A stretch of DNA of 64,000 nt, taken from NCBI GenBank assembly GCA_964016885.1, contig OZ024745.1, positions 34,348,001 through 34,412,000 of the forward strand, written 5' to 3'. The DNA comes from Eledone cirrhosa. Lineage: Eukaryota. The position numbers and the translations under genes are program-made. The notes under the pieces were generated by a model. That model was not told where the DNA came from. It saw only the letters and a program-made list of their open reading frames with translations, and did no database searches. Below, in pieces: positions 53,324 to 53,682 of the stretch (position 1 is its first letter; each line of letters starts with the position of its first letter).

Positions 53324-53682
53324 TAATATATAAGAACAAAAGATGGTTAAAAGAGTTCCATGTATTTTATTATGCGCATTTCAAAAACAAATATCATCAT
53401 GCAATAATATTTGTGTTTTCATCAGATAAAACATGAAGACATGATATGAACAAGTGTTTTTTAACCTTCATATCATGTCTTCATGTTTTATCTGATGAAA
53501 ACACAAATATTATTGCATGATGATATTTGTTTTTGAAATGCGCATAATAAAATACATGGAACTCTTTTAACCATCTTTTGTTCTTATATATTATGTATAC
53601 TCCAGTCCTACAAACTGTAGAGTGCTTATTATCCGATATCTGCATTGCTTTATTGTACTACAATAAAACTCACCTCCTACAT
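53324..53682. mobile_element. Family D palindromic element with a hammerhead on each strand
   Basis: Perfect ~127-bp arms 53324-53450 / 53467-53593, 16-nt spacer, tail to 53682, (TA)n on both sides. Confidence 0.9.
53482..53558 (+). ncRNA. Intact-looking type I hammerhead ribozyme (antisense twin 53359-53435)
   Basis: CATGTTTTAT-CTGATGA-36-nt stem II-GAAA-TGCGC-ATA-ATAAAATACATG; palindromic ATGCGCAT. Confidence 0.85.

Follow-up and report, generated by a model that had tools for sequence, protein, structure and literature searches.

Penelope-like elements (PLEs) of the Hydra clade are characterized (Craig et al. 2021, PMC8557442) by DKT and RW motifs, a CxCX5C motif, CxxC/CxH motifs, targeting of (TA)n and a hammerhead near the 3' end, and the supplement to that study describes an element, Penelope-13_HM, in which a 5'-truncated inverted copy lies at the 5' end and hammerheads occur on both strands. 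The minimal hammerheads of metazoan PLEs are found mostly in truncated copies, with opposite-strand pairs reported 100-700 bp apart (Cervera and de la Pena 2014, PMC4209133). The canonical PLE unit (Arkhipova et al. 2013, PMC3846280) combines head-to-head PLE terminal repeats (pLTRs), a tail on one of them, junctions with microhomology and solo pLTRs, all of which recur in the family described here.

The window analyzed here is a stretch of 64,000 nucleotides from Eledone cirrhosa, and it contains a long hairpin with a hammerhead motif on each strand, inside an intron of an HCN gene. We consider it about 90% probable that this hairpin arose when a high-copy PLE, of the Hydra clade by its protein motifs, inserted recently and in 5'-truncated form into a (TA)n tract within HCN intron 1. 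Its inverted arm was likely made by the insertion itself, so that the predicted masking of its ribozyme is likely a by-product. Like the Hydra-clade PLEs of PMC8557442, the family has a C-terminal endonuclease, CxCX5C, DKT and RW motifs, (TA)n targets and a hammerhead near its 3' end, whereas it differs from them in its ~3.4-kb unit, an Asn-rich insert before the endonuclease and an ~86-nt tail, and, within the hammerhead, in a very long stem II and an A10.1-U11.1 pair. Hydra-1_Obim, from octopus, is a different family, its protein and hammerhead both differing by eye from those found here. With the metazoan PLE minimal hammerheads of PMC4209133 our motif shares the type I core, a long stem II and a tiny palindromic stem III suited to dimers; it departs from them in being without the conserved G10.1-C11.1 pair and in having a stem II of 15 pairs against 7-8 bp. 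The non-LTR retrozymes (bioRxiv 10.64898/2026.07.22.740005), as described there, likewise consist of short non-coding hammerhead units related to PLE pLTRs. A retrozyme reading was rejected: the window copy is arranged head to head and not as a head-to-tail tandem, it is co-linear with the 3' end of an ORF-bearing PLE, and the tandems of this family hold an ORF.

Anatomy of the hairpin and its hammerhead motifs

The hairpin is an exact inverted repeat of 128 bp (53323-53450 and 53467-53594) separated by a 16-nt spacer, in agreement with the perfect antisense arm of ~127 bp that an earlier note on this DNA had claimed. Chance falls far short of explaining such a repeat, but the repeat is characteristic of the whole family and not of this locus. 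Its tailless inverted arm (53323..53450, minus strand) is the exact reverse complement of 53467-53594 and represents a pLTR copy whose outward end lies at an internal, TA-like position, hereafter site 2, abutting the (TA)n target. The tailed arm (53450..53682, plus strand) is a 5'-truncated PLE 3' end, composed of the pLTR with its hammerhead and the tail, which stops at site 1; compared with the 3' end of ORF-bearing copies, it is 98.7% identical over 151 shared columns. The 16-nt loop (53451..53466, plus strand) is the stretch of the tailed arm left uncovered by the shorter inverted arm and consists of family sequence from further upstream. One nucleotide of microhomology marks the arm-arm junction, and the junction pattern was found once in the whole genome, i.e., it is unique to this locus. 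The tail of ~86 nt (53595..53682, plus strand) belongs to one arm only; where copies are arranged in tandem, the 5' leader and ORF of the following unit begin directly after it. A (TA)n/(TACA)n microsatellite on the left (53145..53323) and a (TA)n microsatellite on the right (53681..53791), within which a target-site duplication is unreadable, enclose the insertion, and (TA)n likewise flanks nearly all of the family copies whose flanks were inspected.

The tailed arm carries a minimal type I hammerhead motif (53482..53558, plus strand) with CUGAUGA at 53492-53498, GAAA at 53535-53538 and a predicted cut after 53546. The sequence GAAATGCGCATA at 53535-53546 brings the NUH triplet AUA to its end at 53546, and the palindrome AUGCGCAU (53538-53545, plus strand) adjoins the GAAA; the CUGAUGA and the predicted cut lie where the earlier note had located them. 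Stem I consists of 6 bp, a 2-nt bulge and 4-6 further bp, as expected from the claimed ~10-bp stem with such a bulge, and the long stem II (53499-53534, plus strand), estimated previously at ~14 bp, is present with 15 pairs and one C.U mismatch. The ribozyme that had been claimed on the minus strand of the left arm was also located, as a mirror hammerhead (53359..53435, minus strand) that reads CTGATGA in DNA, CUGAUGA in RNA, from 53425 and has a predicted cut after 53371. The features of the type I core are thus present (CUGANGA...GAAA, A15.1-U16.1, the NUH triplet and stems I and II), and stem III is formed only by A15.1-U16.1 and one pair around GCGC. Since stem III is so short, the hammerhead is intact only as a minimal, dimer-type motif; the description of the motif as complete holds for this minimal type I form and fails for stem III, which has two pairs, and for the Rfam hammerhead models, which gave no score. 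At the gathering threshold, Rfam returned 0 matches in the whole window, and among the 48 sub-threshold matches from a relaxed search of 53300-53700 there was no hammerhead. The top weak models in that search were microRNA precursors, which respond to long hairpins of every kind; interpretation as a microRNA was rejected.

A high-copy Hydra-type family

The family to which the hairpin belongs is very large. A 61-nt ribozyme core occurs exactly 2,236 times in the genome and a 29-mer beside it 7,865 times, whereas the reversed controls of both gave 0 occurrences. A genome search with 53466-53680 yielded 395 candidates, and all of the 40 that were scored are 99-100% identical to the query; among these 40, at least 14 copies other than the window copy fall into the top-scoring 100% class, which identifies the window copy as young and among the youngest, and thereby bears out the recent insertion that had been proposed for it. 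By a rough extrapolation (77 of the 29-mer matches in 60 loci; 3.0 Gb), the family comprises ~6,000 loci and ~1,000 short double-hammerhead hairpins. Such numbers describe a Hydra-type PLE that has been active recently and has reached a very high copy number in this cephalopod.

Long copies extend upstream of the hammerhead into a unit of ~3.4-3.5 kb with a leader, an ORF and a long 3' UTR. The ORF encodes the RT motif YRDD, DKT (HSDKT), RW (RRLRWI) and a linker CxCX5C (CNCPIKNKC), followed by a C-terminal endonuclease with the motifs IY..YFG..FK.R..NH..SF and with CxxC (CNLC..EK) and CxH (NRR..C.H) around its E/N residues. Reverse transcriptase and a GIY-YIG-type endonuclease could be read in the ORFs of L032, L037 and L040, and the family protein is 34-42% identical to five full-length relatives. 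All ORFs in the copies examined are broken, none of them being fully intact, and neither Pfam on 8 ORF pieces and the 5 relatives nor PDB searched with the relatives' profile returned anything useful. Tandems spaced 3.3-3.5 kb apart form pseudo-LTRs (L032, L046, L050 and L052), the tail passing directly into the next leader. An Asn-rich insert between the reverse transcriptase and the endonuclease was observed in long and tandem copies (L040:3430-6876, L032:1-5604, L046, L050 and L052), for which the N-rich inserts reported in rotifer Penelope (PMC3846280) offer a likeness.

Judged by these protein motifs and by visual comparison with Hydra proteins from the literature, the window copy is probably the 5'-truncated terminal repeat of a Hydra-clade PLE. 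The family shows DKT, an RWK-like motif, CxCX5C and CxxC/CxH flanking E/N, and has no N-terminal endonuclease, as in that clade. Its unit of ~3.4-3.5 kb exceeds the length of <3 kb given for the clade because of the Asn-rich insert and the long 3' UTR, and its tail of ~86 nt exceeds the 30-40 bp given for PLE tails, a value that is descriptive and not diagnostic.

Other retroelement remnants were observed elsewhere in the window. At 23195-24769 (plus strand), broken RT-like frames with YSRYVDD resemble a remnant of another, non-Hydra PLE; these frames gave no Pfam match and no match to the Hydra-type proteins described here. Broken ORFs of non-LTR retrotransposons lie at 175-2489 (plus strand), with a weak RVT_1 match, and at 28945-31268 (minus strand).

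Origin of the inverted arm

The arrangement of the window copy was compared with that of 60 unselected loci, the first of the 29-mer list, which cover the first 60 Mb of one contig and each hold the exact 29-mer. These loci contain 100 arms, of which 50 end at site 2 (53586-53608), 49 at site 1 (~53680) and 1 elsewhere. Head-to-head (divergent) pairs number 35 and convergent pairs 0; sorted by their ends, 31 pairs combine the tail with site 2, 3 have two tails, 1 is of another kind, and none ends at site 2 on both sides. The combination of tail and site 2 in 31 of 34 pairs deviates strongly from an independent choice of ends (p=4e-7). At 22 of the 60 loci only one arm of at least 28 bp is present, and a whole hammerhead occurs on both arms at 18 loci at any spacing and at 12 within 400 bp. 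Among the first 100 listed exact cores, 21 neighbor pairs lie less than 8 kb apart, and 19 of these are head to head, 2 tandem and 0 convergent. An inverted, 5'-truncated copy at the 5' end with a one-sided tail describes 31 of 35 pairs as well as the window copy, and is an already published trait of PLEs (PMC8557442, PMC3846280).

A second, unrelated family of fold-back mini-elements in (TA)n was observed with the same anatomy, in which one arm carries an extension of ~85 nt and a shorter inverted arm lacks it. It occupies ~8 places in the window (52146-52325, 36003-36257, 44561-44774, 53875-54004, 55346-55540, 60691-60878, 14780-14868 and 25363-25420), no CUGANGA core was seen in the copies inspected, and it is probably another PLE-type family.

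The comparison of arms within and between loci speaks to the age of the hairpin. At subfamily-diagnostic sites the two arms of a locus agree in 315 of 323 cases (22 pairs), as against 65.5% for random pairs, and their mean distance is 2.1% compared with 5.2% between loci (20 pairs with at least 60 comparable bases). In five long-arm loci the arms share 19 minor variants in 4,253 bp, whereas 18 are shared in 16,302 bp between loci. Identical arms were found in 3 of 20 pairs, the other 17 having drifted apart, which is contrary to the ongoing homogenization that the earlier note had offered as an alternative to recent insertion. Arms thus start alike and then drift, so that arm identity reflects a young insertion and not homogenization; early gene conversion between arms could be another source of the shared variants. 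At one locus, L067 (G000:C1:26845200-26849700), the head-to-head arms resemble different subfamilies and 13 of 17 diagnostic sites agree, which suggests that two different RNA templates may have entered one insertion.

From these patterns we infer priming at two sites, a mechanism to which the family statistics lend modest support. The endonuclease of the element would nick both strands of the (TA)n target, leaving two 3' ends. From one of these, reverse transcription would begin where the tail ends (site 1, ~53682), and from the other at a TA-like stretch lying ~86 nt deeper in the element (site 2, ~53595), with either the same uncleaved RNA or a sibling transcript serving as template for the latter. 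Each cDNA would terminate at a variable position, in many cases at a fixed 5' end located ~27 nt upstream of 53450, and the two would then be joined head to head via microhomology. In L1 twin priming, two target-strand primers on one RNA give rise to an inverted 5' segment joined by microhomology. The L1 process inverts non-overlapping segments, whereas the arms here usually overlap, producing an inverted duplication with fixed start sites. The mixed arms of L067 together with the 22 of 60 single-arm loci indicate that twin priming on one RNA is not universal in this family.

The arms show a fixed 5' stop: of 89 arms, 30 terminate on the 5' side within a single 6-nt window (reference 3268-3273) that lies ~27 nt upstream of 53450. 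This clustering, often with a partner arm that lacks the hotspot sequence, suggests that the hotspot is the 5' end of the element RNA, although the sequence there, TCATATG, also contains a 6-bp palindrome and resembles the TA target. We take TCATATG to be initiator-like and, as such, a candidate transcription start of the element. Ribozyme cleavage left little trace among the copies. Breaks just before the ribozyme cut site, scored by two mismatched bases, were found in at most 51 of 7,865 copies and numbered 30 at the control, which is a single site 5 nt from the cut whose count has no denominator of its own, and 18 of the first 30 at the cut site and 18 of 30 at the control site were true breaks. 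Run-off at a ribozyme-cut end was accordingly rejected as a source of truncation, since it would explain no more than ~0.4% of copies and no clear peak stands at the cut site; with so few copies beginning there, the RNA that is copied is almost always uncut.

Biochemical observations on another PLE are in line with several steps of the two-site model. In the in vitro work on the Anolis Poseidon protein PAc (Frangieh et al. 2024, PMC11167929), the purified protein nicks and extends both strands of AT-rich DNA, in common with the targets here, and uses two start sites bounding the tail and an uncleaved RNA template, in common with the model. PAc belongs to another clade, and that study saw no strand difference in start site and does not appear to address inverted arms; in the family studied here nearly one site is used per end. 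In the titles and opening abstract lines of the openly accessible papers listed by a literature search, no proposal of twin priming for PLEs was found. The copies of this family put numbers on an open question, the origin of PLE inverted repeats with a one-sided tail: two fixed outer ends used almost strictly one for each end of an insertion, the same template lineage in both arms, a 5' stop at a fixed position, and cleaved RNA hardly ever serving as template.

The same element could also have acquired its inverted arm by self-priming or fold-back of a single strand, or by later duplication and conversion, which we regard as unlikely. Arkhipova et al. (PMC3846280) attribute the palindromes found where inverted copies join to self-priming on an antisense template and favor this route; the palindrome at the 5' hotspot, the private variants shared by arms and the position of the window copy's tailless arm, wholly inside the span of the tailed arm, would all agree with it. 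Two priming events nevertheless account better for the arm patterns of the family. There is no overlap between the tailed arm and its partner in 4 of 35 pairs (L049, L061, L073 and L077), and the tailless arm, which often extends further in the 5' direction, exceeds its partner in length in L040, L044, L058, L091 and L093, neither of which a simple fold-back of one cDNA suffices to produce; furthermore, one arm stops at the hotspot where its partner is without that palindrome (L054, L056, L061, L091, L093 and L097), and the outer ends fall at two fixed positions, with nearly every pair having one of each. That the hairpin was created in assembly, by a fold-back or chimeric long read, has a probability close to negligible, even though its arms are perfectly identical and lie between simple repeats, and its junction is unbridged by the short-read contigs and reads among the longest records listed. 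An artifact of this sort is hard to reconcile with an arm that ends exactly at the family's site 2, without the tail, as at dozens of loci, with the arm-specific differences that most pairs carry, or with the opposite-strand joints of the family found in raw reads of two other samples.

The HCN intron, masking and RNA editing

The conserved part of the first coding exon of HCN lies at 46894..47273 (plus strand), in a frame that is open from 45676, and ends at a GT donor (AG|GTAAGT at 47273). It encodes Ion_trans_N, by a Pfam domain match, and is 97.6% identical to squid HCN over 127 aa. The next exon was located at C5:34,587,888 and the cyclic-nucleotide-binding exon at C5:34,885,155, all of them on the plus strand, which puts the hairpin ~6 kb into a first intron of ~193 kb with its hammerhead on the HCN sense strand. 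Exon homology thus supports the claim of the earlier note that the region lies inside the HCN transcription unit, and the locus would presumably be transcribed within HCN pre-mRNA. With ~6,000 loci in 3.0 Gb, one insertion is expected by chance in a gene of at least 490 kb. The insertion appears to be neutral for HCN and is very likely without importance for it.

Structure prediction agrees with the masking that had been proposed. In the full-context fold, the long duplex has a predicted pair probability of 0.9995 and stem I one of ~1e-62, and forcing the hammerhead stems in the full hairpin carries a computed cost of 112 kcal/mol, so that the ribozyme fold is predicted to lose to the duplex by a wide gap. 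The proposal that editing could unmask the ribozyme fared differently. With 10-100% of the left-arm A read as G, the predicted gap falls to 107-92 kcal/mol, and with 25-100% of them made unpairable it falls to 85-26 kcal/mol, both being crude proxies for inosine; a predicted 26-107 kcal/mol would therefore remain under the editing proxies. For the isolated arm, the predicted pair probability of stem III is 0.0014 and that of the active monomer fold ~1e-5, and the 8-bp palindrome is predicted to form an intermolecular duplex at -10.5 kcal/mol, in keeping with the dimer type. Across 48 distinct family copies, the ribozyme pairs are kept in 98% of 1,197 cells. Recurrent variants are one-sided and pair-keeping (A-U/G-U and U-G/C-G), a two-sided change was seen 1 time, and covariation does not exceed that of shuffles. 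Constraint on the ribozyme, if there is any, would act on the active element rather than on the window copy. Whichever strand is transcribed, a head-to-head arrangement places the antisense arm first in the RNA, and masking therefore needs no selection at the locus.

A functional role for the hammerhead in HCN pre-mRNA, held off by the antisense arm, freed by ADAR editing or unwinding and thereby regulating the channel, is in our assessment very improbable. In its favor, HCN intron 1 does carry the motif on its sense strand, the ribozyme fold is predicted to be abolished by the duplex, and octopus is reported to have a very high level of hyper-editing and dsRNA potential (PMC5625713). However, 12 of the 60 unselected loci show the same geometry within 400 bp, and 18 show it when spacing is disregarded, which argues against a masked switch specific to HCN. 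The youth of the window copy, the energy gap predicted to persist under editing and the low predicted probability of an active monomer weigh further against such a role, as do the reports that minimal PLE hammerheads are inactive as monomers and weak as dimers (PMC4209133) and that a PLE hammerhead needed the protein of its element (PMC11167929). Domestication of an intronic ribozyme by the host was likewise rejected, the motif being present not at a single locus but in thousands of identical copies.

The 128-bp perfect duplex is a plausible ADAR substrate, and its editing would be plausible given the hyper-editing of octopus and the heavy editing reported for lizard Penelope (PMC5625713). Should copies in introns be transcribed, the family would also supply ADAR with perfect dsRNA in large amounts. 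Editing is not callable from the sequencing reads because A>G differences also occur in DNA runs and the reads pool thousands of family copies; RAD runs do not appear to cover the locus. As a speculative extension, which we regard as unlikely, twin priming might be obligate at two fixed RNA sites, one per strand, and would always place the antisense arm ahead of the ribozyme in either direction; insertions would then disarm themselves and be tolerated in introns more readily than solo copies, and about a thousand near-perfect short hairpins might feed the exceptional A-to-I hyper-editing of cephalopods.

Two further observations concern the HCN gene itself. Upstream of the methionine equivalent to that of squid HCN, 45676-46893 (plus strand) forms an open extension of ~400 codons that is rich in Gly, Thr and Ser and possibly represents a long N-terminal isoform. 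About 20 kb before the window, at C5:34327857-34328040 (minus strand), short and partly stop-containing matches to HCN transmembrane sequence may belong to another channel gene or a remnant.
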